From a virus, in the IMG/VR virus record IMGVR_UViG_3300022230_000138, positions 1 through 29,184 of that record: a stretch of 29,184 bases of DNA. One strand, 5' to 3'. The notes below the pieces were generated by a model, which worked only from the letters and a program-made list of their open reading frames with translations, searched no databases and was not told the origin of the DNA. Below, piece by piece: positions 2,013 through 25,797 of this stretch. The position numbers were made by a program, and so were the translations under genes. Position 1 is the first letter of the stretch, and every line of letters starts with the position of its first letter.

Positions 2013-2626
2013 AAATGGTGGTGATCAGTGTGGATGTGGACTGGGGCCTGGTGGAGAAGGAGTATGTTCATGGGGTGACGCGTGAGGATGGTTCTATCGT
2101 CTTCCCAACCCTGAAGGATCTCGCTGCGAAGCATGGGGTTTCATACCAGGCTGTTCTGAAACGCGCGAAGGATGGGGATTGGGGTAGCCGGCGTGAGAGG
2201 GTTCAGGAGCGTGTGAAGATTCATCTGGATCGTCTCAGGGCTGATCAGATCGCGAGGAGTATCGCGGGGATGGATCTGATCTTTTTCGAGACGAGCATGC
2301 GCCTGGCTCTTCTCTTGGGGGAGCATGTGGATCTCCTCCGCCAGAAAACGAGCCAAGGGGAGCTTGTTAGGAGCTCAGAGTTTTATAATATCTCCCTGGC
2401 CCTTAAATCCGCCTATGAAGTTTCCAAGGCCTCATTGGAGGATGGTGATGATAGTAAAGCTAAATCTGAGGGTAAGAAGGCGAGTAAATCCTCATCCAAT
2501 AAGTCCCTGTCCGTCACCGAGGTGAAGGAGAAGGCTGCGAAAAACCTGATGAAAAAGCTGATGAAGGAAAAAACAGAGAAAAGAAAGCCCCGCGTGATCG
2601 AACTGGAGGCGTCAGATGCTGATTGA
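2009..2626 (+). CDS. terS: Terminase small subunit
   Basis: N-terminal HTH pattern DW..VEKEY..G...TLKDLAAKHGVSYQAV.KRAK...W; lies directly upstream of and overlaps the large subunit. Confidence 0.85.
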   Translation: MKMVVISVDVDWGLVEKEYVHGVTREDGSIVFPTLKDLAAKHGVSYQAVLKRAKDGDWGSRRERVQERVKIHLDRLRADQIARSIAGMDLIFFETSMRLALLLGEHVDLLRQKTSQGELVRSSEFYNISLALKSAYEVSKASLEDGDDSKAKSEGKKASKSSSNKSLSVTEVKEKAAKNLMKKLMKEKTEKRKPRVIELEASDAD

Positions 2627-4018
2627 GGTGAAGGACCCCGCTGAACGCGTTGAGAAGAAGATGGAGGTCTTCAGGGAGCTGAAGGAGAAGGGGGAGTACG
2701 ATTTCCTCGACGAACACCCCAGGGAGTCCGTGGAGGCCTTCATCGAGGGGATAATCCTGAATGAGTTCATCCCCACCATCCCCACGCCAAAGCAGGCTCT
2801 TTTCCTCCTATCTGATGAACCCGAGGTCCTCTACGGTGGAGCGGCCGGTGGGGGGAAGTCCGAAGGCCTTCTGATGGCAGCACTGCAGTATGTTCACGTG
2901 GAGGACTATCGCGCGCTTCTCCTCCGCCGAAACTACCCCGAATTAACCCTCCCTGGTGGATTGATCGACCGTGCGCACCAGTGGCTCCACAGTACTGATG
3001 CTGAGTGGGCTGGTGAGAAGAAAACGTGGCGTTTCCCCTCCGGAGCCACATTGACATTCGGCCACATCGACGTTGACCGTGATAAGTACAGGTATCAGTC
3101 CACTGAGTTCCAGTTCATCGGATTCGACGAATTAACGGAATTCACGGAGCACCAGTACCTCTTCCTCTTCAGCAGGCTCCGTAAGACCTCCGATAACCCT
3201 GTGCCTCTCCGTATGCGGGCCGCGACGAACCCCACGGGCTCCGGGCTCCGCTGGGTCCGTAAACGATTCATACTAGATGAGGAAGCGCATTTCATCCCCG
3301 CCACGTTCCGCGATAACCCATTCCTCGACTCAAGCTACTTGGATTCCTTGAAGAAGCTCGATCCGATCACCAGACGCCAATTGAAAGATGGGGATTGGAT
3401 GGCTGAGGAGAAGGGCGGGCTCTTCGATGAGAAATGGTTTCAGCGCTTCGCACTGGACCCCCCGAACCTGTTGCGGAGGGTCCGGTTCTGGGATATAGCC
3501 TCCACGCCTCCAGGCGCGGGGAAAGACCCTGACTGGACCGTGGGGACCCTGATGGGTGTGGATGCGAATGGATACTACTACGTCCTGGACGTGGACCGTT
3601 TCCAGGCCAGCGCGAGGGACGTGGAGGAGCGTATACTCTGGAATGCTGAGAAGGATGGTCAGGACACGATCATATTGATTGAGCAGGAGCCAGGGGCCTC
3701 CGGGAAGATGGTAGTCGATTATTTTAAGCGGAAATTGGATGGGAAGATCGTGTATGGTGTTAGGCCGGTGAAGGACAAGTTTCAGCGAGCCAGGCCACTG
3801 AGCAGCTATGCTGAGGCCGGCAGGGTGTTTGTGCGGGATGCTCCGTGGAGTGATGACTTCCTCTACGAATTATCCGTCTTCCCACGCCCCGGAGTCCATG
3901 ATGACCAGGTGGACAGTGTCTGCGGGGCCTTCAACTACCTTATTCAGCGAGGAGGGTCCGATCTGGCCGTCTACGGGGCTGTGACGCGTGGAAAAGGACG
4001 TTTTGGACATGAGGTGAC

Positions 4019-4022
<4 letters not shown>
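2616..4022 (+). CDS. terL: Terminase large subunit
   Basis: Walker A YGGAAGGGKS, Walker B FIGFDELTEF, coupling motif ATNP, nuclease motifs RFWDIA, DWTVG and HDDQVDS. Confidence 0.97.
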
Positions 4023-5406
<1,384 letters not shown>

Positions 5407-5410
<4 letters not shown>

Positions 5411-6138
5411 CACCCGCTGACTTGGCCAGGATCACCCGGCGGAATATACGGACGGTGCAGGAAGCAGAGGCTCTCATAGATCGTCTTTTCCGTTCATACA
5501 GCGCCATCCTCAGCATAGACCCTGATGATATCCGTGATGATGATGAGTTCCTCCGCAGGCTCCGTGTTGAAGTGGAGAACCCGATCATGAGCATCCCAGG
5601 CCTTGAGAGGGTCATAGAGAAGGCTGCTGGGATAATCTCCCAGTACCCTGCGAGCATGGGTGAGATGCGGAGCCTGTACCATGTGATACTCGAAACTGGG
5701 ATCAGAACATACCTGTCCAAGGCGAACGCGGAGTTCCTGGCTGAGTTCCGCGCCTTCATCTCCCGGAGGGTGGCGGAGAAAACCCCATACACGGAGATAA
5801 TGAAGGAGCTCCATAGGAAATACTCAGAACTCCCCAGGTACCGTGTGAAAAGGGTGGTGCGGACGGAGATGATGCGGGCGAACAATCTGCTGAACTACTA
5901 CGCTGGGATCAAGGAATTCGGCCACGAGGCTTACTATCGGGTCACCACGCACCGTGACCCCTGCCCGATCTGCAGAGAACGGTACAAATTCGGTGAGGTG
6001 ATCTTCCCAGCCTCTGATACGGCGAATATACCCCCATTGCATCCTAATTGCCGCTGTACGATCTCATGGCTACCTCTCAGTGAGATTCCGGGGGATCTGA
6101 GGCGTCAGAGCCGCCAGCCGATCAGCAGAGGAGGGTAG
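5407..6138 (+). CDS. Head morphogenesis protein (SPP1 gp7 / Mu F-like)
   Basis: RVKRVVRTEMMRA, CPIC and PPLHPNCRCTI motifs; located after the portal gene. Confidence 0.92.
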
Positions 6139-8148: not shown

Positions 8149-8181
8149 GTAGGGTGAAAAAGGAGATATGAGGTGATAGAT

Positions 8182-9123
8182 ATGGGAATAGAGACTGTTA
8201 AGACCGTTCCTGCAAGGCAGCTTTTTAGGAAGCACAATCTGGAATTCTACATGACAGAACTCCTCATACCAAGATTACGGTTCTTGGACGTCCTGGATCC
8301 GGTCCAGAACGAAACAGGGGAGTTCACCAGTGTGGTGGAGTCCGCAAACCCGCTCACTGACCTCGCGGACGGCTCACTATCCGAGCCAGTCCCAGCCACG
8401 GAACTAGCTGAGCTCACCATGATCAAATTCGAACCTAAACAGGCCATATCCGGGAACACCCTCGTTTTCGGGTACCAATTCGAGTACACGGATCAGCAGG
8501 CGAACAGGTCACAATTCGACTCTGATGTGAATCGTGCTATCCAGTACGCTGCCACAGGACTCGCGTACACGTTCAACACGTACGTGGCGAACGCCCTTGC
8601 GGAGGCGGCCGCCGCGGACGCCCCTGCAGACCTCACGGATTGGGGGGATCCTGACACCAGGCAGCCCAGGGCAGACCTCCTGGCGATCAGGAAGGCGTTC
8701 AATGAGGCCACTGGCGGCGTCTTCGTACCTGACAGGGTCTACATGGAAGCCGATCCATTCTACGCCCTCCAGGACTACATCATATCAGTAGAGGGCTCCA
8801 GGAACGTGATAGAACGCACACCACAGGAAGAAGAAGTCGACCTGGACGGATTAAGGATCTATAATGTCCAGAACACGATGGAGAACGCGAATTTCCTCGT
8901 TCTCAGCGGAAACATGAAACCAGGGATCCTAGAAAAGTACACGAACCCAGAATACGCAGCCCTCACCGGAAAGGAGGTGTACGGGATCCCCGATGGCCTC
9001 ATAAACGTGAATCAGTTCAAGGAGGATGGTGCGCCGCACCGTAACATCGTGGAACTCTGGATGGAGATCGGTGTGAACGTCCGCGAGCCAAAGAGCATCA
9101 TGGCCGGGACGATAAGCACGTGA
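8182..9123 (+). CDS. Major capsid protein (HK97 fold expected)
   Basis: Size ~313 aa and position in the head module; GAGGTGA RBS favours ATG 8182; P-domain-like QPRADLLAIRKAF...PDRVYM segment. Confidence 0.85.
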   Translation: MGIETVKTVPARQLFRKHNLEFYMTELLIPRLRFLDVLDPVQNETGEFTSVVESANPLTDLADGSLSEPVPATELAELTMIKFEPKQAISGNTLVFGYQFEYTDQQANRSQFDSDVNRAIQYAATGLAYTFNTYVANALAEAAAADAPADLTDWGDPDTRQPRADLLAIRKAFNEATGGVFVPDRVYMEADPFYALQDYIISVEGSRNVIERTPQEEEVDLDGLRIYNVQNTMENANFLVLSGNMKPGILEKYTNPEYAALTGKEVYGIPDGLINVNQFKEDGAPHRNIVELWMEIGVNVREPKSIMAGTIST

Positions 9124-10443: not shown

Positions 10444-11469
10444 ATGCCAACACGTTATTTCGGATTCAAAAAGGAATCAAGCTTTGGGGAGGAGGCCGCC
10501 GGCGGGTCAAAGTATGATCTCACAATCGCAGACACCGTGAGCCTCGACATCCCGGACGACGCGATCATAGAACTCCCCAGCCTCAGCCCATTCCAGGAAG
10601 GACATATCCCGGGCTACTACGCCCCCAAAGGGAGTTTCGAGTACCCTGTGGATGTGAAAACCATCCCCCACTTCCTATACTTCCTTCTAGGCGGATACAC
10701 CTTCACAGAAGGATCCAGCGGGGGAAAGAACAAGCATGAGTTCTATGCGACAGAATCCACCTTCCTACCCTCATTCACCGCCCGTGTGGGGAAGGACAGC
10801 TACGAACACGTCTTCCTGGGCTGCGTCCTGCAGAAGGCCAGCTTGGAGGTGGAGGATGCTGTGACGATGATGAAAACCGATATCGTCGCTAAAAAAGATA
10901 AGAAGGCGACTATACGCAGCTCACTGAACGAACCGGGTCCTGTGTGGCCGATAGCGTACCATCACGTCACCGTCACCTTCGGTGAAGGCGCTGGGGCGAC
11001 TGACTACACTTCCTACGTGCAGAGCTTCAGCCTCGAGTACGAGAATGGTGTGAAGGAGGATTATGGCCGTGGTTTCGGCTCAAGGTTCCCGTACATGTAC
11101 ATGACGGGGGAGAAAAGCTGTGAGATGAGCCTGGAGCTCCGTCCGATAGGCGCTGATCAGCAGTACATCGATCAGGACTTCCTGGAACGTGTCTGGGGTG
11201 CTGAGGATGGTGTGAGCGAGGACTCCACGGCCGTCTCAGAGAAGGTCACCGTGGTTTTCGACGCTGGAACGGCGGGTACGATGACACTGGTGGCGCCTCA
11301 GGCCTATATAAGCAAATTAGACACGAGTTACAAGGGCGCTGAGGCCAGGACGCTCTCAATGGACCTGAAATGTGAGATGGGAACCGTCACACTAGCGGAC
11401 GGTTCAACAACCAAGAAAACCCCCCTCTACGTGAAAGTGGGGAGTGATGAGGGGCAGGTAACAGAATAG
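10444..11469 (+). CDS. Major tail tube protein
   Basis: RYFGFKKESSFGE start, LPSFTARVG...VFLGCVLQKASLEV pattern, size 341 aa, synteny; no sheath gene. Confidence 0.88.
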   Translation: MPTRYFGFKKESSFGEEAAGGSKYDLTIADTVSLDIPDDAIIELPSLSPFQEGHIPGYYAPKGSFEYPVDVKTIPHFLYFLLGGYTFTEGSSGGKNKHEFYATESTFLPSFTARVGKDSYEHVFLGCVLQKASLEVEDAVTMMKTDIVAKKDKKATIRSSLNEPGPVWPIAYHHVTVTFGEGAGATDYTSYVQSFSLEYENGVKEDYGRGFGSRFPYMYMTGEKSCEMSLELRPIGADQQYIDQDFLERVWGAEDGVSEDSTAVSEKVTVVFDAGTAGTMTLVAPQAYISKLDTSYKGAEARTLSMDLKCEMGTVTLADGSTTKKTPLYVKVGSDEGQVTE

Positions 11470-11476
11470 GAGTGAT

Positions 11477-11923
11477 ATGATGGCGAAGATGAAGGAAAAC
11501 ATGGAACTCCTTGAGGAGATAGTGAAAGGAACCGGAAAATACCATGAAACCCAAATAGAGGGCCTTTCGAAGCCCATATACCTCAGACCTCTCTCATCAG
11601 CCGAACTGCTCGAATTACAGGCCCTGGAGAAGCGTGGGATGAAAGCAACCCTCAACCTGGAGGGTATGCTCGATATGACGCCCAAACAGCGCCGGGCGAG
11701 CGTGAAGGATCAGATGCAGAGCTTCCAACAAGAATTCGACTTCGAAAAGGCGCTGAAGATGAGGATGGAGGTGCGCTTCAAGGCAATATCCTATTCCATG
11801 GACGTAGACGAGGATCACGTGAAAAAACTCCCCCCCGAGATCGTAAAGAGGATATTTGAAAAAGTAGTGGAGGTATCAGGACTCACAGAGGATGATCTGG
11901 ACGCTATCAGTGAATTTCGCTGA
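11477..11923 (+). CDS. Tail assembly chaperone (lambda G-like)
   Basis: Lies between the tail tube and tape measure genes; IYLRPLSSAELLEL pattern. Confidence 0.82.
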   Translation: MMAKMKENMELLEEIVKGTGKYHETQIEGLSKPIYLRPLSSAELLELQALEKRGMKATLNLEGMLDMTPKQRRASVKDQMQSFQQEFDFEKALKMRMEVRFKAISYSMDVDEDHVKKLPPEIVKRIFEKVVEVSGLTEDDLDAISEFR

Positions 11924-12155
11924 ATCAGAGACTGGAAGGGGCCTATGGGCCCTCATAGACTCAGGACACCCCCTAGCAGAGACTCTTGGGGATCTGACGG
12001 AGAAACAGAAGGCCTTCATCATCCACTCCTACTATTTGAAGCTGGAGGAGGATCGGGAGTTCCTCGCCGGGGTGATGGGCGCTGAGCTGAAGAAAGGAGG
12101 AAGTCATAGTGGACGTGTGCGTAGAGAAGCCCTCAGACGGGCTCAGAAACTCTGA
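11892..12155 (+). CDS. Tail assembly chaperone extension (lambda T-like), probably made as a +1 frameshift fusion
   Basis: Overlaps the upstream ORF in the +1 frame; LGDLTEKQKAFI motif; no well-spaced RBS. Confidence 0.75.
   Translation: MIWTLSVNFAESETGRGLWALIDSGHPLAETLGDLTEKQKAFIIHSYYLKLEEDREFLAGVMGAELKKGGSHSGRVRREALRRAQKL
11915..11923 (+). other. Candidate +1 programmed frameshift site TTT-CGC-TGA
   Basis: The last two codons plus stop of the chaperone; a UUU to UUC slip enters the downstream ORF. Confidence 0.7.
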
Positions 12156-12176: not shown

Positions 12177-15100
12177 ATGAAAGAAATAGGGATCGTGGTG
12201 AAGCTCCTAGACCGTTTCACCGGGGAGCTCAAAAAAGGCGCCAGAACAGCCATGGACACATTCAGGACCATGCAGAACTCCGCGAGGACAGCTGGCACTG
12301 CAATGAACCGTGCAGGTGGAGATGCCAGGAAATCACTGGTGAACGTGCAGAACGAGACCAGGAAAGCCTCCAATGCACTCACAAAGCTCGGTAGGACCGC
12401 CACGAGCCTGAAACTCACCCCGAACACTGACGGCCTCCGAAAGGTGAGTGCGGAGGCCACAAGGGCCGGTGGGACTATCACACAGTCCTTCACAAGAGCA
12501 GCCACCACCTCATCCACCGCGATGAACATCCTCAGCACCACCACTACCACAGCAGCAGGACGAGCCGCGGGTAGCATGCAGAGAATCTCCACAGCAGCAT
12601 CCTCCGCCCTGGGCCGTGTCTCCGCCCTGGCGACCTCTGCAGGAACACGACTCATCGGGGCCTTCTCACGCGCAGCTACCGGTATATCGGGTGTCTTCAG
12701 CCGAGTGGGCTCCGCTGCATCATCCGCCTTCACTAGGATCCGGAAGGGAGTGAGCGGGGCGTCATCATCCCTCGACACTTTATCGTCGAACATATCGGGC
12801 TTGATAGGGGCCTTTGGGGCTGCTCAGCTCGCATCAGAATCCTTCAGCGCTGCGATGGAGCGTGACATGTTCGCGGCGTATATGGAGATGAATGTCGGGG
12901 CTGCGAAGGCCAGGGAAATCGCCAGCATCATCCGTCAGATCAACATAGAATCCCCCGCGCCGGCTGGATTTATAAACAAGCTCATCACTGGGGCTATCGC
13001 GAACCAGGCGAGCCTCACAGCCTCCGAACTCCGCCTCCTGGGCCAGGTGGCCTCCGACTATTACATGGCATCGGTGATGATGGGAAAGAACAAGATAGAC
13101 ATCGAGCAGGACCTTGTTACTTATATTAACACGGGGAACACGTCGGAAATGGCCCGTACCAGTATCCTGAAGGATCATGTGGACTATCTGGGTCAGCAGA
13201 AGACGATTTCGGAGAGAATACTCGCCCTCGACAAGGCGTTGAAGGAAGAAGGGTATCGTGGCCTCAGCCAGCAGCAGAGAGCCCTCATATATTGGGAGCT
13301 GACGAAGGACCTGATCATGGAGGTCTTCATCAGCCTAGCGGGGAGTGTGCTGCCCATCTTGACGGGTGTGATGCGGGCTTTCGTCAGCTTGGATGAAGCC
13401 ACCCGCGGATGGGCCGCTGCACTTGTAGCGGGCGGTGTTGGGCTGCTTGTTCTCATCACAGCCCTCCCCACACTCATATCATTGGTTGAAACGGTTTCAA
13501 TAGGCTTCAGCCTCCTCCGGGGGGCTCTGGTGGCTTTACCCGGCCTCTTCGCTGGCGCTGCGGGTGGGGCTGGGCTCTTGGGCTCCGCTATCTCCTTCCT
13601 CACCGGCCCCCTGGGCGTGGCTCTCATGGCGGTCATCGCGATCACAGCGGCTTTCATATACTTCTACCGGACGAATGAATCCTTCAGGGAGTCTGTGAAT
13701 CGTCTTGGGCAGAGCATCATGTCCGCGCTTGGCGGGGCGCTCAGTTGGCTCGCTGGTGTGGCTGGGCAAGTTTTCACATCCCTGAGGAGTGCCCTGCAGG
13801 GACTCTGGGGGGCACTGCAGCCTGTGGTCTCCGCGGTTGGCGGGTTCCTCTCATGGCTCGGCAGGCTCATAGTATCCTTCTACACCACCACTGATGGTGT
13901 CAGGGCCCTTATAAGCAGCCTCGGACCCCTCGGGGTGTGGATCGGGTTACTCTTGAATCCTATCCAGACCCTCCGTTTTGCATTCCAGCAGTTGAAGATG
14001 GCCTGGGATCAGTGGGCCTCATCAGCGGAGGGGCAGGCGACTCTACAGGCTCTCAAGGCTGCTTTTAATGAGGTTAAACTTGCCATGCAGCAGGTCTGGG
14101 CTGCACTGCAACCCGTATTCGATGCTCTAGGGCAGGCATGGGCGGAGCTTAGCAATGCTATTGCTCCTGCCCGTGAAGCCAGTGGGGCTGTGAAGAGCGT
14201 AGGGGATAGTGCAGGGGGGGCTTCTGGTCCGCTGCAGTTATTCGTTGATATTATCCATGTTGTGGCTTGGATCCTCTCGAATGTTGTTGTCCCGGCGATA
14301 AGTGCGTTCGCAGAGTTCATCAGGTTCATCGCCCCTGCAGTGCAAATGTTAGCCTACGCTTTGAGTGGTTTGATCAGTGTACTGGTCTACATTGGCCAGG
14401 TAGTTTATACTGTGTTCTCATTCTTTTACCAGTTCGGTCAGGCATTATGGGAGCTCCTGAATGGTAATATCACTGTGACGGAGTTCCTTCAGCGTGTCTG
14501 GGATATTTTCAGGGCTACTATCGGCAGGATACTCCTGCAGATAGTGATGGCTGTGATACGCTTCGGGGCTCAGTTAGCAGTGCAGGCGATCCGCGCGGGC
14601 CTGCGTTTCGTGCAGAATTTCGTGAATTTCCTCAGGGACCTTCCACGAATCGCTTGGCTCCTGTTACTTCTTGTAATTCAGAGGGTTGTGTTCTGGGCTA
14701 ACAAGATGTACGCCCGGGCCCGTCAGACCGGGCAGAGGGTTGTGGAGGGGGTTATGTCATTCCTAAGAAACCTACCGGGGATGGTCTGGCAGGAACTCCT
14801 GAATGTGATTGATAAGATTAAGCAGGCCCCTGGAGCCGCGTATCAGGCGGCTGTGAATTTCGGTAAAAGGGTCTGGGATGGTGTGAAGAAAGGATTAGGA
14901 ATCGCATCCCCCGGTCATATCTACAGGGATGTCTCTGATGAAATCACCCGCGTCACAAGGGAATTCAAGGATAGGCAGGATGAAGCCGCTGCATCAGCGA
15001 AGGGTTTCGCGGATACAATAGTCTCCGCAGCATCTATTAAGGGTGCGGGGCCAACCCCTACACCAGTAGCTGTAGCCGCGCCGTCCATGCCAAGCCCTCC

Positions 15101-16424
15101 TGCAGCAGCCGTGCCACCAGCACCAGCACCAGCACCTGCACCCAGCCCGGGTGTCACCCCCACGGTGACCCCTGATAGGATCATCGCTGAGTGGGCTCCG
15201 ATCCGGAAGATACAGGATATCACAGCGCAGACTTGGCGGGGAAGCTTTGAGGCTGTGAGAACCGGCTTCATGGACATGCAGAACACGACTAGAACCAGCC
15301 TCATGAACATGCAGAACACGACCAAGACGGGTACGCAGAAGATACACAGCTCCTTCGACATGATGAGGAGGGATGTGTCCACCGCCATGACCGGTGTGAA
15401 GCAGGCAGCGACACGTTCCTTCACCGAAATGAAAAACGGGGTTGTTGCAACCGCCGAGAAGACGAAAACAGGGAGCACAAGCCATATAAACACCTTAAGA
15501 CGGAATATTGAGCGTTTCTTCGCGTATATCCGGAGCCCGGCCGGGGGACCGGCAGGAGCGCCACGCATAGGCGGTGGTGGTGGTAGATCATGGAGCTTCC
15601 GCCTCCCAGCCCCAGCAGGCCCATCACCACGCCTCGTGAAGGATGAGATCCGCCCTCCAAGCCCCGCCCTGATCAGTATGAGTTCTCGTGAGCTCCGCCG
15701 CCTGGAGGAGGAATACTGGGAGGATGGATGCTCATTTCTACCCGCTGGGGGCTGGGATCAGAGCAAACGATGGATCCCAACCGTGAACAGGCTGATAGAC
15801 CGCAGGGAGTTCTCCCCACTCCCTGGGATGCGCGTCAAGGTCGGGGCTTTCCGGAAATGGCCCCCTGAGGGCGTTTTCGGGTCATTGGCAGGGTTTATAC
15901 CCTTCATTTCACGTGTCATCGGAGCGACACGGTACAGCTTCTACAGGGGCAGCAGCGGCCTGAGCATCCAGCAGCTCCTCAGACGGGGCGCCTTCAACTG
16001 TTATGACGGCGCCAGGGTCGTCGCAGCCCTTGCACATGCCTGGGGCCTCCCTGCTAGCGTCCAATGCGGTTTATCCTGGAATGGGATCCCCCATTGCGCC
16101 GCACGGGTCGCAGGGCTCTGGTTTGACACGACCGCCTTCCAGTACGGGTACGGGTGGACCTCTCCGAAGGTCAGAGGGTACGGTCCGGGTCCGGATGATT
16201 TCACCGTCCCCCGTGAGCCTGGAGAGGTTCATAGCACCGTGAATATCAATGTTGAGGTCCATGCAGGGCCCGGTATGGATGAAGAGACTTTGGCTGAGAA
16301 GATTAAGCAGAAAATCACCGATCCAACAATTCTTAGAAGGATTGCGGGTGATAGGGTGTTCCTTAAGGCTTTTGACAAGAGTTATGGGGGTTACTATGTG
16401 AATGAGGATAGGAGGAGTCTGTGA
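12177..16424 (+). CDS. Tail tape measure protein with a C-terminal transglutaminase-like (Cys-His-Asp) domain
   Basis: About 1415 aa, Ala/Ser/Gly-rich helical repeats, 11-aa repeat at 15270-15335, hydrophobic central segments. NCYD (Cys 15999), PHC (His 16092) and WFDT (Asp 16125). GGTGGTG RBS favours ATG 12177. Confidence 0.95.
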   Translation: MKEIGIVVKLLDRFTGELKKGARTAMDTFRTMQNSARTAGTAMNRAGGDARKSLVNVQNETRKASNALTKLGRTATSLKLTPNTDGLRKVSAEATRAGGTITQSFTRAATTSSTAMNILSTTTTTAAGRAAGSMQRISTAASSALGRVSALATSAGTRLIGAFSRAATGISGVFSRVGSAASSAFTRIRKGVSGASSSLDTLSSNISGLIGAFGAAQLASESFSAAMERDMFAAYMEMNVGAAKAREIASIIRQINIESPAPAGFINKLITGAIANQASLTASELRLLGQVASDYYMASVMMGKNKIDIEQDLVTYINTGNTSEMARTSILKDHVDYLGQQKTISERILALDKALKEEGYRGLSQQQRALIYWELTKDLIMEVFISLAGSVLPILTGVMRAFVSLDEATRGWAAALVAGGVGLLVLITALPTLISLVETVSIGFSLLRGALVALPGLFAGAAGGAGLLGSAISFLTGPLGVALMAVIAITAAFIYFYRTNESFRESVNRLGQSIMSALGGALSWLAGVAGQVFTSLRSALQGLWGALQPVVSAVGGFLSWLGRLIVSFYTTTDGVRALISSLGPLGVWIGLLLNPIQTLRFAFQQLKMAWDQWASSAEGQATLQALKAAFNEVKLAMQQVWAALQPVFDALGQAWAELSNAIAPAREASGAVKSVGDSAGGASGPLQLFVDIIHVVAWILSNVVVPAISAFAEFIRFIAPAVQMLAYALSGLISVLVYIGQVVYTVFSFFYQFGQALWELLNGNITVTEFLQRVWDIFRATIGRILLQIVMAVIRFGAQLAVQAIRAGLRFVQNFVNFLRDLPRIAWLLLLLVIQRVVFWANKMYARARQTGQRVVEGVMSFLRNLPGMVWQELLNVIDKIKQAPGAAYQAAVNFGKRVWDGVKKGLGIASPGHIYRDVSDEITRVTREFKDRQDEAAASAKGFADTIVSAASIKGAGPTPTPVAVAAPSMPSPPAAAVPPAPAPAPAPSPGVTPTVTPDRIIAEWAPIRKIQDITAQTWRGSFEAVRTGFMDMQNTTRTSLMNMQNTTKTGTQKIHSSFDMMRRDVSTAMTGVKQAATRSFTEMKNGVVATAEKTKTGSTSHINTLRRNIERFFAYIRSPAGGPAGAPRIGGGGGRSWSFRLPAPAGPSPRLVKDEIRPPSPALISMSSRELRRLEEEYWEDGCSFLPAGGWDQSKRWIPTVNRLIDRREFSPLPGMRVKVGAFRKWPPEGVFGSLAGFIPFISRVIGATRYSFYRGSSGLSIQQLLRRGAFNCYDGARVVAALAHAWGLPASVQCGLSWNGIPHCAARVAGLWFDTTAFQYGYGWTSPKVRGYGPGPDDFTVPREPGEVHSTVNINVEVHAGPGMDEETLAEKIKQKITDPTILRRIAGDRVFLKAFDKSYGGYYVNEDRRSL

Positions 16425-16608: not shown

Positions 16609-19398
16609 GTGGGAACAACAACCCTGAAGCCCACGCAGATGGCGTATGAGCGAATAGAGAAAGATAAGTACGGCACATACACAGAGACGGTCTGGTACAA
16701 CCTCCCTAGGATAAAGGAAAAGGACGGTTCATATGCCAGCACAAGCCAGATAGCGTCCAGAAAAGGTACCGTTTCCAAACCAGGGCGTGTGAAGGCCCAT
16801 ACACTCACAGGGACCATCCCGGTGAACGCGAAAATCACGAAGGTCCGCGTGGAATGGAGATGGTACGTGAGGAACCCCTCAGGCGGGACCACAGGCGTCC
16901 CCACCATCCCAGGAGTCTACGTCTGCCTCTGGAAATCCGGGGCGGGCTGCAAGACCTCCACGGTCTCCACGACCACCGCAGCACCCACCTCCGCGGGAAC
17001 ATCCTACGCTGAGTTCACCACAGGCCTCCCGACACGTTCAGAACTCCTCTCCGGTGGATACGGGGTCTACTGGAACCCGAAAAGGAACACGAGCTACAAC
17101 CCGGGCTACCTCTACCTAGATAGCATCCATTTCATCGTCACATACACAGAGCCCTCCTATACTGTGCAGGTTCAGGGAACAGAGGCCTGTGATAGGGATG
17201 ATGAGGTGACGTACACCTTCACTCTCTCTGATGCGAACCAGTGCCCTCACACCCAGAACGTCCCCGTAGACCTCAGTTTCAGCTCAGATTTCCATGTGAC
17301 GGGCTACACGACGACGGATGGATCATTCGATCCCTCCACGATGGTCTGGAGCGCCCTCCCGGGTAGTGGTGGGTCAGCCACCCTCACGGTGAAGGGGAAG
17401 TACACTACTGCAGGTGTGAAGGAAGTCCGGATCACTGAGACGGTGACAAACCGGACTGCTTCGATTCAGACCACGGTCACAGACCCCTCCATCACCGTCA
17501 CATGCGACGACTACATCATATGCCCTCAGGGGCAGACTGTGACCCTGCAGATCACCGCCACAGGTCCCCAGGGTCTGAACGGGCGCCGGGTGAGGATCAC
17601 GAAGCCCCCATGGGCCACATTCACCACGGGGAGTGGCTCTGATGGGTCAGTCTCGGGGGATGTGTGGACGATATCATGCTCCTCATCCTGCACCACCGCC
17701 CAACTCTACCTGAAGATCACACCAGATGAGTCAGATGGGTCAGGGAAGTGGCATCTGAGCCGGGTGAAGGACGAGGAGACAGGGGAGCTTCTCACTTTCA
17801 TCTCAATGATCACAGGGTCCACTGTGAAGCCCCCCATCCATTCAGTCCCCGTGGACCTGGACCTTTCGGATGAAGAGTGGGAGAATGGGAGCTATGAACT
17901 AGTATTCTACGTCGCTAGGGATGAGGAGAAGTATGGGTGGAGTTTCACAGGATCAGACTACGAATACGCTGTTATATCAGGGGAGAAGGTCCTATACTCA
18001 TTCAGGAGTCTTCTGTCATCCACACCAGTCCAGGTGAGGGTCCCGATCCCCCCAGGGACCGCGGATCTAAAGGTGAACCTCGGAGCGGTCACAGGAGTGC
18101 CGAAGGCTGTTTCCCTGCGCATCTCAGACCCAGTCCTGGTCCCATCAGGGGGTGAGTACCAGAAGGGAGTTGTAACACGCCACAATGAAGCCACCGGGAG
18201 ATGGGAGGTGGTCCTGGACAATTTCGGCATAGAAGGTGGCTTCATCTTCACCCCAAGGATCCCAGAACTCCCCTCTGGGCTGAGGAAGGAGATCACAGGC
18301 CTCCAAGTGGAAATGGACGTCTCCTGTGAGGAACTGGTGGATGACTCCTGGGTCGGGTCCAGGAACGCGTATTTCACCCCGTGGATCTGCCTCGGCGGCG
18401 GTCTCTGCGGGGGGAAGGATATGAGAACCCCTATGGATGAGCGCATCACCCTCGGGGGGGCGGCTGATAAATGGAACCTTCACCTCGAGTCTCTTGGGAT
18501 AGAGGAGATGGAGGCCTCCTCCCTTGGATGGGACGTCCTGGAGGTGGGGCGTGTCAGTGATATGCGAGTGAAACTCACCGCGAACTCCGCCACAATGAAC
18601 CACATCCGCCTAAGGTTCTCAAAGCCAAAGGTAACAGTGTATTATGACGAGGTGAGCCCTAAGACGCCGGGTTTCACCGTGAACGGGGTGCATAGCGGTT
18701 CTTTCAGAACCCACCTCCGCCCAGACTCGGACATCCCGAACGGGCCGCTGAGGAAGGTGGAATTCACGAACTACCCATACTCATTCACCAACTACCCCGA
18801 GAAGGCCAGGACAGAACCCCTGAAACTGAAACTAAAGTTCATAGTGACCGGTGGAAGTATCAGGGAGTCTGAGAGGCTCCTCCAAGACCTTCAAAACCTC
18901 CTGGCGAATGAAACGGATGAATACAGGCTCCCCATCCTCAAAACACTGAAATTCGACTGGGATGACCGTCTCTACGACTACATACTCACAGAGACCGTGA
19001 AGAAAAAGCCCCTAGGATCAGCGTATGAATGCGAATGCGAAATCACAGTCCCCTCCGGGGCTGGCAGACTCCCACCACGGGAACTACCCCCAAAGGGGAC
19101 TCATAGGAGCCTCACACCACCCAAACCAGTCATAGAAGCCTACTTCACAGAGGCCGTGGAGAACCCTATCTTCGCAGAGACCAAGAGCGGTGCGAAAATC
19201 CTCCTCCTCACCAGAATCCCCCCAGGAACCACCCTATACATCGACTCGGCGAGGAGGAGGATCACAGACGCTGAAGGAGTCCACTACGAGGGCCTTGTAT
19301 CCTGGGACTCCTCATGGTTCCTCCTCCCCAGGGAGTATGAGATCACCGCACCCTCAGGGGTTGTGATCCGCGGAGTGCGCGTCGAGGAGGTGGTCTAG
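16609..19398 (+). CDS. Distal tail protein (Dit) with a long N-terminal Ig/DUF11-like extension
   Basis: C-terminal ~250 aa match a Dit pattern (FTVNGVHS, LKLKFIV, LKFDWDDRLY, PPKPVIEA, TLYIDSARRRI). N-terminal VTYTFTLS...DGSFD...VWSALPGSGGSATLTV resembles DUF11. Confidence 0.78.
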   Translation: MGTTTLKPTQMAYERIEKDKYGTYTETVWYNLPRIKEKDGSYASTSQIASRKGTVSKPGRVKAHTLTGTIPVNAKITKVRVEWRWYVRNPSGGTTGVPTIPGVYVCLWKSGAGCKTSTVSTTTAAPTSAGTSYAEFTTGLPTRSELLSGGYGVYWNPKRNTSYNPGYLYLDSIHFIVTYTEPSYTVQVQGTEACDRDDEVTYTFTLSDANQCPHTQNVPVDLSFSSDFHVTGYTTTDGSFDPSTMVWSALPGSGGSATLTVKGKYTTAGVKEVRITETVTNRTASIQTTVTDPSITVTCDDYIICPQGQTVTLQITATGPQGLNGRRVRITKPPWATFTTGSGSDGSVSGDVWTISCSSSCTTAQLYLKITPDESDGSGKWHLSRVKDEETGELLTFISMITGSTVKPPIHSVPVDLDLSDEEWENGSYELVFYVARDEEKYGWSFTGSDYEYAVISGEKVLYSFRSLLSSTPVQVRVPIPPGTADLKVNLGAVTGVPKAVSLRISDPVLVPSGGEYQKGVVTRHNEATGRWEVVLDNFGIEGGFIFTPRIPELPSGLRKEITGLQVEMDVSCEELVDDSWVGSRNAYFTPWICLGGGLCGGKDMRTPMDERITLGGAADKWNLHLESLGIEEMEASSLGWDVLEVGRVSDMRVKLTANSATMNHIRLRFSKPKVTVYYDEVSPKTPGFTVNGVHSGSFRTHLRPDSDIPNGPLRKVEFTNYPYSFTNYPEKARTEPLKLKLKFIVTGGSIRESERLLQDLQNLLANETDEYRLPILKTLKFDWDDRLYDYILTETVKKKPLGSAYECECEITVPSGAGRLPPRELPPKGTHRSLTPPKPVIEAYFTEAVENPIFAETKSGAKILLLTRIPPGTTLYIDSARRRITDAEGVHYEGLVSWDSSWFLLPREYEITAPSGVVIRGVRVEEVV

Positions 19399-23215: not shown

Positions 23216-23566
23216 GTGAAAAGGATATGTGAAGGGATGCGCATACGCGTAAACCCCATACCAGGACTGGAAAACCCAATCGAAGGTGATGGGATCCGTG
23301 ACAACCAGACCAGGACTTTCATAGTCGCGGAAATCCGTGAAGAAGACGAAACAATCCTCCTCCATGAACTCCTGGATGGTGCTGTGAACAGGAATGGCGG
23401 CCCCATCGGGGCCACCATCCGGGTCACGCTGCAGGATCTTCTCCAAGCCTACATGAACACCCCCAAATGGGTGAGGAGGATTACGAAAACCCGCAGACCC
23501 CGCACGAAAAGACCTGGGAAGAAGAAAAAAGAGACGGATACAAGCGCAGAAGCGGGGAAGGAATGA
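23216..23566 (+). CDS. Hypothetical protein with a degenerate zincin motif (HELLD) and a basic C-tail
   Basis: GGAGGTGG RBS; ILLHELLDG at 23354-23380; ATGA overlap with the endolysin. Confidence 0.65.
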   Translation: MKRICEGMRIRVNPIPGLENPIEGDGIRDNQTRTFIVAEIREEDETILLHELLDGAVNRNGGPIGATIRVTLQDLLQAYMNTPKWVRRITKTRRPRTKRPGKKKKETDTSAEAGKE

Positions 23567-24501
23567 TGGAGGCTGAGAATATGAAGCTGGAGAAAGGAAT
23601 CGTCACGAACCAGGTCTTCAAGGACATGCAACGCCGATACAACCTATTCAAGAAAGAGAACAACCGTGAACCAAAAATAATCTTCATAGAGCCTGGTAAA
23701 AAGGAATATGTGACCCTAGAGACCTTCAAGGACATGGAGAAACGATATGAGAACTTCAAGAAGGAGAGGGGTCGTGAACCCCTCACAGTCCAAATCACAC
23801 CCCCAGAGAAGGAGGCGGTGAATCTAGAGAAAGGAATCATCACAAATCAGGTTTTTAAGGACATGCAGCGCCGATACAACCTCTTCAAGAAGGAGAACGG
23901 TCGCGAACCCCAAATAATCTACATAGAACCTAATAAAAAAGAATACGTGACCATAGAGACCTTCAAGGACATGGAGAGGAGATATGAGAACTTCAAGAAG
24001 GAGAGGGGTCGTGAACCCCTCACAGTCCAGATCACACCACCAGGGAAGGTCAAGGAGGCTGAGAAGCGCAGTGAAACCCTTCAAGCCCTCATAGATGAAC
24101 TAGGATACTTTAGCAACGCAACAGAACTCTACAAGCTCCTCACGGCGAAGGGGAAGTACAAATACTACTTGAACCGGCGATGCGGGACACTACGCGAAGC
24201 CGTACGGCGAATCAAGAAAGAAGGGATAAACTGTGCTGATGCCTGCACCCTCTTCACCGTCATCCTCCGCGAGATCGGGTACACAGTCCAGGTGGAGCAT
24301 GTCAGGGTCAAGTGTAATGATGGTGTGTGGTACGGTCACTACCTCCTCCGAGTGAAGGGCAGAGAATTCCCGAACACGTCAACGAACCCCTCACAGTGGA
24401 CTATATGGGATTATGTGAGCGCAACGAAGACGAAGCGGCCATTAGGGACACCGTGCTGCGTGGCTGGCTTCAAGCATCTGGATTGGGATGGTGTGAAGTG
24501 A
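23563..24501 (+). CDS. peiP: Pseudomurein endoisopeptidase (PeiP/PeiW-like endolysin); alternative start 23581
   Basis: Four FKDM.RY..FK.E.GREP pseudomurein-binding repeats. Catalytic GINCADAC (Cys 24232), HVRVKCNDGVWYGHY (His 24337) and WDYVSATKT.RPLG.PCC (Asp 24409), as in PeiW/PeiP. Confidence 0.97.
   Translation: MMEAENMKLEKGIVTNQVFKDMQRRYNLFKKENNREPKIIFIEPGKKEYVTLETFKDMEKRYENFKKERGREPLTVQITPPEKEAVNLEKGIITNQVFKDMQRRYNLFKKENGREPQIIYIEPNKKEYVTIETFKDMERRYENFKKERGREPLTVQITPPGKVKEAEKRSETLQALIDELGYFSNATELYKLLTAKGKYKYYLNRRCGTLREAVRRIKKEGINCADACTLFTVILREIGYTVQVEHVRVKCNDGVWYGHYLLRVKGREFPNTSTNPSQWTIWDYVSATKTKRPLGTPCCVAGFKHLDWDGVK
23587..24049 (+). repeat. 237-bp internal tandem duplication (two pairs of pseudomurein-binding repeats)
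   Basis: Units start at 23587 and 23824; long identical runs such as GATATGAGAACTTCAAGAAGGAGAGGGGTCGTGAACCCCTCACAGTCCA. Confidence 0.95.
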
Positions 24502-25033: not shown

Positions 25034-25252
25034 ATGAAATACGGTGACTGCATGCGCACATTCAAAGTGCCTGCTTGGCTAGCTGAAGAAAAAGGACTCA
25101 TCAGGGAAAGAGTGACAGGGACAATAGAACGTGAAACACCCAAGGCCATACTGCTGAGAACACCCAAAGGGGAGTTATACTGGCTCCCCAAAAGCCAGAT
25201 CCGTGAAGAAAAGATCCCCGCTGATCAAACCACCTTGGGGGGAACAGGATGA
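25034..25252 (+). CDS. Small beta-barrel hypothetical protein
   Basis: GGGTGA RBS; RETPKAILL....E.YWLPKSQI motif, common in small viral proteins. Confidence 0.7.
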   Translation: MKYGDCMRTFKVPAWLAEEKGLIRERVTGTIERETPKAILLRTPKGELYWLPKSQIREEKIPADQTTLGGTG

Positions 25253-25797
25253 AAAACACCACCACACTCACAAAAACCTACACACCCCAAACCACCCAGA
25301 ACCCCACAAAAACACCCGAACCAAGAAAAGAACTCTACAAGGCCCTCCAAAAGGCCCTCAACGAACTCAGAAACCCCAAGACAACCAGGGAGAACCCGTT
25401 CTTCAAGAGCCACTACGCACCCCTCAGCCAAGTCCTCGAAGAAGCCAAAAAAGTCCTCAGCAAGCACGGACTCTTCATCTACCAGCGCGTAGGCAGCGAC
25501 ATCGATGAAACCAACCGCATCTGGGTTGGTACAGTGATCGCCCATGAGAACGGGGAGGAGATCAGGAGCGGGAAACTCTACATCCCCCTCCCCGACAAGA
25601 AACCACAAACCGCCGGAAGCGCCATCACCTACGCCCGCAGGTACAGTCTCATGGCCCTCCTAGGCGTCGCAGGGGAGGAGGAGGATGATGATGCGAACAG
25701 AGCCAGCCACCGCACCAGACCAGGCAGACCCCCAAGCAGACCCCCAGCCAGACCAGACAGGAGAACACGGGAGACGGAAGGTGGCAGGGCAGAATGA
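25249..25797 (+). CDS. erf: ERF-family single-strand annealing protein
   Basis: NPFFKSHYAPLSQVL and PQTAGSAITYARRYSLMALLGVA..EDDDAN signature. Confidence 0.95.
   Translation: MKNTTTLTKTYTPQTTQNPTKTPEPRKELYKALQKALNELRNPKTTRENPFFKSHYAPLSQVLEEAKKVLSKHGLFIYQRVGSDIDETNRIWVGTVIAHENGEEIRSGKLYIPLPDKKPQTAGSAITYARRYSLMALLGVAGEEEDDDANRASHRTRPGRPPSRPPARPDRRTRETEGGRAE
25287..25306 (+). repeat. 20-bp inverted repeat, copy 2
   Basis: CCAAACCACCCAGAACCCCA, the reverse complement of 323-342. Confidence 0.9.

Follow-up and report, generated by a model that had tools for sequence, protein, structure and literature searches.

Peptidases of the C71/Pei type cleave the epsilon-Ala-Lys isopeptide bond of pseudomurein. 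The best described are PeiW (prophage psiM100; structure 8jx4) and PeiP (phage psiM2; 8z4f), which belong to MEROPS family C71 (PF12386), have a transglutaminase-like fold and are soluble lysins of ~300 amino acids with a presumed role at exit. In bacterial siphoviruses, wall hydrolases on tape measure or tail-tip proteins are common, for example Pb2 of T5, the motifs in the tape measure protein of mycobacteriophage TM4 and Tal of TP901-1; their modules are lysozymes, transglycosylases, M23 or NlpC/P60 domains that act on murein. Here we analyse a viral genome of 29,184 bases, the entire IMG/VR record IMGVR_UViG_3300022230_000138 (hereafter the window), whose tape measure protein (TMP) almost certainly carries a Pei-like transglutaminase-fold peptidase domain near its C terminus. 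The logic is that of the bacterial phage tail hydrolases, in which the first protein to exit the tail bears a lytic module for local wall digestion at entry, and the TMP bodies are homologous, whereas the module itself is a Pei-like cysteine peptidase.

In the papers on MSTV1 and on the gut archaeal virome, Pei is treated only as an endolysin, and a review from 2024 on how archaeal viruses enter and leave their hosts takes up pseudomurein solely in connection with egress, through PeiW, PeiP and PeiR (PMC10791045). The crossing of pseudomurein by tailed archaeal viruses is not addressed in the literature that we searched, and we found no published description of a TMP module of this kind for archaeal viruses, although a mention in the compendium of Medvedeva et al. 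2023 or in the MSTV1 supplements is possible.

The open reading frame (ORF) that carries the domain encodes a genuine siphovirus TMP. It matches ten PHROG ‘tail length tape measure protein’ families (best E 2.4e-34) and is placed between the tube and chaperone genes and the gene for the distal tail protein, Dit. Among 50,697 phage records, residues 1–1140 match annotated TMPs in 81, of which about 76 are bacterial, with hosts that include Paenibacillus, Clostridium, Lactobacillus, Propionibacterium and others; a megablast search of the whole gene against the phage collection gave no match. Hydrophobic stretches in the body (residues 382–503, 554–597, 690–755 and 788–845, from Kyte–Doolittle averages of at least 1.6 over 19 residues) may have a membrane-inserting role, by comparison with bacterial TMPs. 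Gly/Pro-rich and Ala/Pro-rich linkers precede the C-terminal module, and the Pei-like core is read within the same frame, with no stop or frameshift in the translation. A lytic-type domain on a structural tail protein is the layout of virion-associated wall hydrolases, and the TMP of the window has this layout.

The fold of the module was predicted with AlphaFold2 from one of three alignments of its relatives (A1, 19 sequences; A2, 27; A3, 39; identities ranging from 30 to 96%). The model, built on A2, covers residues 1190–1419 with a mean pLDDT of 81, rising above 90 through the core. Two lead-in helices (model residues 11–24 and 37–41; pLDDT 83–89) precede the core, and the tail that follows it falls below pLDDT 50 at model residues 158–168 and has helices within 184–218. 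A Cys at the N terminus of a helix, with His and Asp on or beside adjacent strands, is the classic layout of papain and transglutaminase folds. The secondary structure of the model has the putative triad in this canonical arrangement: helix 90–103 begins at the Cys, His121 lies in strand 119–126 and Asp132 follows strand 129–131.

Comparisons of the model with solved structures point to the Pei enzymes. All of the top Foldseek matches are transglutaminase-like cysteine peptidases (3isr, PeiP 8z4f, PeiW 8jx4 and the TGase 4xz7). A structure alignment independent of Foldseek, run against 48,161 representative chains, ranked PeiW first (8jx4_A; Z 10.4, rmsd 3.3, 106 of 148 residues, with model residues 46–153 corresponding to PeiW 1–138) and PeiP second (8z4f_A; Z 8.8). 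LapG and TglA tied with PeiP, ahead of NATs, vasohibins and transglutaminases. Apart from PeiW and PeiP, the top matches in these structure searches are all enzymes of transglutaminase-like or papain-like type.

At the level of single sequences the relationship is faint, and it strengthens as family profiles are brought in. The module and the Pei endolysin encoded in the same window are 17% identical (BLASTP E 0.087), a phmmer search of PDB sequences with the module found only a TGase (E 1.3), and hhalign gave just 12.7% probability when A2 was compared with a single Pei sequence. With the A2 profile, PeiW and PeiP were the two best matches among all PDB sequences (E 0.012 and 0.034), over the YxYYN...NCxD stretch. 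A hidden Markov model (HMM) made from six free-standing Pei lysins of the window and related loci reached TMP C termini in relatives, with E values as low as 1.2e-9 (35.5 bits), matched only Pei and TMP ORFs among 3210 ORFs and scored 12.9 bits (E 0.012) on the TMP of the window. Aligning the 39 TMP modules of A3 with eight Pei sequences gave 96.8% probability (hhalign; E 2.6e-10) over 86 columns, which cover the lead-in, the Cys and the His. Pfam Transglut_core is matched by 23 of the 39 family members at E ≤0.01 (best 4.9e-7) and C71 by 4 (best 0.0018); NCBIfam has no family for the module.

The residues expected of a cysteine peptidase are conserved in all three alignments of the family. 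The 1419-residue translation contains ...RYSFYRG...GAFNCYDGARVV...NGIPHCAARVAGLWFDTT..., and C1279, H1310 and D1321, together with N1278, D1281, Y1257 and Y1260, are invariant in A1, A2 and A3. Beyond the triad, the invariant positions include the N-C-x-D motif, the Tyr pair of the Y-x-F-Y lead-in, one Gly and one Trp. PeiW and PeiP have several features in common with the module: Y-x-[FY]-Y-Y-N as the lead-in, N-C-x-D as the motif of the nucleophile, the His, and an aromatic-Asp. Both come from viruses of pseudomurein hosts. There are also differences: overall identity is 12–17%, the module is embedded in a structural tail protein rather than forming a soluble lysin, its presumed role is in entry rather than exit, and its His and Asp lie 11 residues apart, whereas Pei has an extra loop of ~10–13 residues between them. 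The module also lacks the N-terminal pseudomurein-binding repeats (PMBR) of Pei; none was found in the TMP with Pfam, and an iterative PMBR search matched free-standing lysins only. The module is therefore a distinct family in the Pei/transglutaminase-like group, outside Pfam C71 by threshold.

An earlier note made from the DNA alone had proposed much of this. It read the ORF as a tape measure, which the PHROG matches, the homology of the body and the gene position bear out, and it placed Cys, His and Asp codons at 15999, 16092 and 16125, as the translation does. The endolysin-like order and context that it described for the triad are seen in invariant residues that align with the Pei motifs, and its statement that the sequence is otherwise divergent and lacks binding repeats agrees with the low identity to the Pei of the window and the lack of PMBR. 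The transglutaminase-like, PeiW-type fold that it suggested is supported by the structure prediction, which has PeiW and PeiP as best matches, and by significant profile homology; the second, separate Pei endolysin, with PMBR and Peptidase_C71, is indeed encoded. Its placement of the domain needs adjusting: the core lies near the end of the TMP, but not at the very end, since ~77 residues (1343–1419) follow.

The position of the module is also a family trait. A word-indexed search returned 30 TMP-length proteins with a common C-terminal module, and HMMER, run exhaustively over 1.8 billion representatives, gave 209 clusters (E ≤1e-3), in which the match lies nearly always at the extreme C terminus of proteins of 1000–4300 amino acids; the short hits look fragmentary. 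In 51 related loci the matched module stops 2–56 residues ahead of the end of the ORF, with the same layout throughout, and for two distant family members the gene is again downstream of tube and chaperone genes. Several relatives are 2000–4300 amino acids long; one of 4234 amino acids (P0061, L055:10001-22705), with the same terminal module, would imply an extremely long tail. A metagenomic protein of 479 amino acids (P0083) matches the module in two separate stretches, a tandem duplication.

Among the 50,697 phage records, the module is confined to viruses of one host lineage. A tblastn search with the module of the window returned 7 of the phage records, which represent 5 viruses, all of Methanobacteriales hosts: PhiF3 (Methanothermobacter thermautotrophicus), Drs3 (Methanobacterium formicicum), vir249, vir075 (Methanobrevibacter gottschalkii) and MSTV1 (M. 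smithii). A second, divergent module query returned exactly the same 7 records. Because the TMP body matches 81 records and the module only these 7, the body is cosmopolitan and the C-terminal module host-lineage-specific. The earlier note would have taken an equal occurrence among viruses whose hosts lack pseudomurein as a refutation; this was not seen, all matching phage records being Methanobacteriales viruses. PhiF3 ORF21 (MN737622; L053:8104-12717) has the same module, 47% identical over 96% of the domain, in the same gene order, and the module is also C-terminal in the ‘prominin’ ORF of Drs3 (MH674343, 27446-27949) and the putative TMP of MSTV1. In public annotation these homologues are labelled ‘hypothetical protein’ (PhiF3), ‘prominin’ (Drs3) or plain TMP, with no peptidase noted; for homologous TMPs, the PhiF3 and Drs3 labels are uninformative or wrong.

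Among species-representative genomes, those with the module are four from Methanobacteriaceae, Methanobrevibacter or Methanobacteriota and two ‘bacterial’ metagenome-assembled genomes. Of 329 genomes scanned in the phylum to which one Methanobrevibacter host belongs, 29 have a TMP-type copy. The two exceptions are contigs in assemblies labelled Synergistaceae and Clostridia (L001, JBFXIQ010000081.1; L002, CALLZZ010000172.1), neither of which has a C71 gene. A bacterial host was rejected in the case of L002, as the only matches to its Dit are in Methanobacteriales viruses (Drs3, E 1e-89) and it encodes a PeiR-like C39 lysin. It clearly reads as a mis-binned methanogen virus, and the same is most likely true of L001, a 5.6-kb contig with a domain 46–48% identical to that of the window.

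Relatives of the module also occur in the chromosomes of the hosts, where its profile finds 6–13 places per Methanobacteriaceae genome. The chromosomal relatives that we fetched have a C-terminal Transglut_core (73–98 bits), most with PMBR and several with a weaker C71 match (L057–L066 in G003–G006; for example, L060:1040-2131, L064:1123-2169 and L059:1976-4231). They score 35–49 bits with the TMP-module HMM and higher, at 45–83 bits, with the Pei HMM. Their catalytic core is homologous to that of the module, and PMBR ties them to pseudomurein; unlike the module, they are chromosomal proteins of 280–1075 amino acids with PMBR, Ig-like or DUF11 domains and lie above the Transglut_core threshold. 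Some also carry Ig-like, DUF11 or glycosyl-hydrolase-like domains. These host proteins may serve as autolysins or may cross-link pseudomurein, and the viral domains could derive from them. Pseudomurein is the expected substrate because every detectable relative of the module is a pseudomurein-associated protein, and, judged by sequence, these relatives fit hydrolysis as well as transfer chemistry.

The presumed exit lysin, by comparison, differs in class between viruses. The Pei endolysin of the window shares 52–56% identity with PeiP and PeiW, which come from phages of Methanothermobacter, and the host is taken to be a pseudomurein-walled methanogen because this lysin is encoded. Where ~9–10 kb of downstream sequence was available among the 51 loci, a separate lysin is usually encoded: it is of the C71 Pei type in 7 loci (the window, L003, L004, L015, L028, L046 and L051) and of the C39 PeiR type in about 11 (L002, L006, L010, L012, L019–L022, L027, L030 and L043). 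Two of the C39 lysins, those of L010 and L012, are fused to PMBR, and that of L002 to PG_binding_1. Two separate jobs fit because the TMP module stays constant while the class of the exit lysin changes, and the module is not redundant with one lysin class because it is present alongside either C71 or C39 lysins.

Taken together, we consider it likely that the module is a virion-borne pseudomurein peptidase that acts at entry and is paired with a separate lysin for exit; we infer its catalysis, the bond that it cuts, its location in the virion and the timing of its action. By analogy with bacterial siphoviruses, the TMP would lie inside the tail tube with its C terminus at the tail tip. After adsorption it would be expelled C terminus first, and the peptidase would cut the peptide cross-links of pseudomurein locally, which would allow the tail tip and the hydrophobic TMP segments to get to the membrane and penetrate it, so that DNA can be delivered. 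The separate PMBR-Pei lysin would dissolve the wall from within at exit.

Several observations weigh against this interpretation. As a single sequence, the module scores only 14.6 bits with Pfam Transglut_core (PF01841, clan Peptidase_CA; E 0.04, with a range of 0.04–0.25 across the single-sequence searches), under the gathering score of 23 bits, and neither the TMP of the window nor its C-terminal part matches Peptidase_C71 (PF12386, gathering score 22 bits) at E up to 1. The TMP of psiM2 (ORF21, AF065411, 14685-18245; L054) has no detectable module although its host has pseudomurein; from the sequences compared, then, the module is not obligatory for entry, and is common without being universal. 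Passage of the wall by Leisingerviridae is, given the psiM2 TMP without a module, a separate question. Bond specificity may also differ from that of Pei, as the module lacks PMBR and the His–Asp insertion, and the transglutaminase fold also serves acyl transfer and self-processing.

The last point is the starting place for the alternative that survives best, although we regard it as unlikely: a maturation protease that cleaves the TMP or other tail proteins during assembly and has no action on the wall. Papain-like and transglutaminase-like folds include many self-processing proteases, some bacterial TMPs undergo C-terminal processing, the domain is flanked by flexible Gly/Pro linkers, and psiM2 infects a pseudomurein host without it. 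A general assembly role is nevertheless hard to reconcile with restriction to one host order when the TMP body is shared with bacterial phages, and all relatives of the module are wall enzymes or PMBR wall proteins.

It is rather less probable that the module is a transglutaminase or acyl-transferase, or a non-hydrolytic wall anchor, that fixes the tail tip, covalently or tightly, to pseudomurein peptides without cutting them. The family does match Transglut_core far more often than C71, and the host proteins with PMBR and Transglut_core could be cross-linkers; the nearest solved structures, by contrast, are the hydrolases PeiW and PeiP, and anchoring alone would open no path through a thick sacculus. 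Strict conservation of the full triad also disfavours a purely binding role. Nor do we expect the module to be a second exit lysin, with unassembled TMP aiding late lysis and playing no part in entry. That proposal, which we judge improbable, would suit a Pei-like domain in a virus that needs wall digestion for exit, but the module carries no PMBR for targeting, is in every case part of the C-terminal region of a structural tail protein and, where the downstream sequence sufficed, usually coexists with a dedicated C71 or C39 lysin. That the motif is degenerate or due to chance, in a structural TMP segment with no enzymatic role, is very improbable: the sequence of the window itself falls under Pfam thresholds, yet the catalytic residues do not vary even among deeply divergent relatives, the fold is modelled with confidence and the profile–profile homology is significant.

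The window has a siphovirus-type layout, with genes on the plus strand according to the ORF list and a Pfam scan (Table 1).

Table 1. Positions in the window of the TMP, its parts and the other genes assigned
Feature	Position	Strand	Basis or remark
Large terminase	2616-4022	+	
Mu-type portal	4019-5410	+	
MuF-like protein	5407-6138	+	
Capsid protein	8173-9123	+	
Tail tube protein	10444-11469	+	Pfam Phage_tube_2, E 3.9e-13
Two overlapping small ORFs	11477-11923 and 11892-12155	+	Tail assembly chaperone position; placed only by location between tube and TMP
TMP, 1419 amino acids	12165-16424	+	
Hydrophobic segment cluster, TMP residues 382-845	13308-14699	+	Kyte–Doolittle
Gly/Pro-rich linker before the module, residues 1123-1165	15531-15659	+	Sequence, composition
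Helical lead-in, AGGWD-x-S-x-x-W region, residues 1190-1234	15732-15866	+	Conserved in A2/A3 consensus
Pei-like transglutaminase-fold core, residues 1235-1342	15867-16190	+	Structure alignment to PeiW and hhalign to the Pei family
Putative nucleophile Cys1279, in N-C-x-D	15999-16001	+	Invariant; first residue of model helix 90-103; aligns with Cys of Pei NCxD
Putative general base His1310	16092-16094	+	Invariant; in model strand 119-126; aligns with Pei GH motif
Putative triad Asp1321, in F-D-T-T	16125-16127	+	Invariant; right after model strand 129-131
TMP C-terminal tail, residues 1343-1419	16191-16421	+	AlphaFold2 model; disordered linker and three short helices
Dit (distal tail protein) with DUF11 insertion	16609-19398	+	Pfam SPP1_Dit E 2.4e-5, DUF11 E 4.9e-6
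G8-domain protein, 574 amino acids	21464-23188	+	
Pei endolysin, three PMBR repeats and Peptidase_C71	23467-24501	+	Pfam Peptidase_C71 E 2.6e-55, PMBR E 1e-21
ERF recombinase	25249-25797	+	

The two small ORFs between the tube and TMP genes had no family match in the Pfam scan, and the SPP1_Dit match of Dit, at 24.9 bits, is slightly below the 25-bit cut-off. DUF11 insertions of the kind found in this Dit also occur in host surface proteins (locus L063). Dit and the G8-domain protein are candidate receptor-binding or wall-contacting tail parts. The left end of the window departs from this pattern: the AT skew of positions 1–2000 is markedly negative (−0.43), and an ORF on the minus strand (1–519) runs off the end of the contig, both in contrast to the plus-strand genome elsewhere.

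The module may well be the first virion-associated wall-degrading enzyme to be recognized in archaeal viruses: a distinct, TMP-borne, Pei-like family, present in most siphoviruses of Methanobacteriales, that would act from outside without PMBR and stays constant while the exit lysin is swapped between C71 and C39. The lineages concerned include Anaerodiviridae (PhiF3 and Drs3), MSTV1-like gut viruses and many uncultured viruses. Pseudomurein crossing thereby gains a concrete, cloneable candidate that is present in cultured systems (PhiF3, Drs3 and MSTV1). Enzymes that act on pseudomurein from outside are of practical interest for the lysis of methanogens, in laboratory protoplasting and in methane mitigation, and the module, if active from that side, would be a new source of them. 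For these viruses, it would mean that a bacteriophage strategy, a tape measure equipped with a wall enzyme, has been recreated by joining an archaeal-specific enzyme to a TMP scaffold that is itself cosmopolitan.

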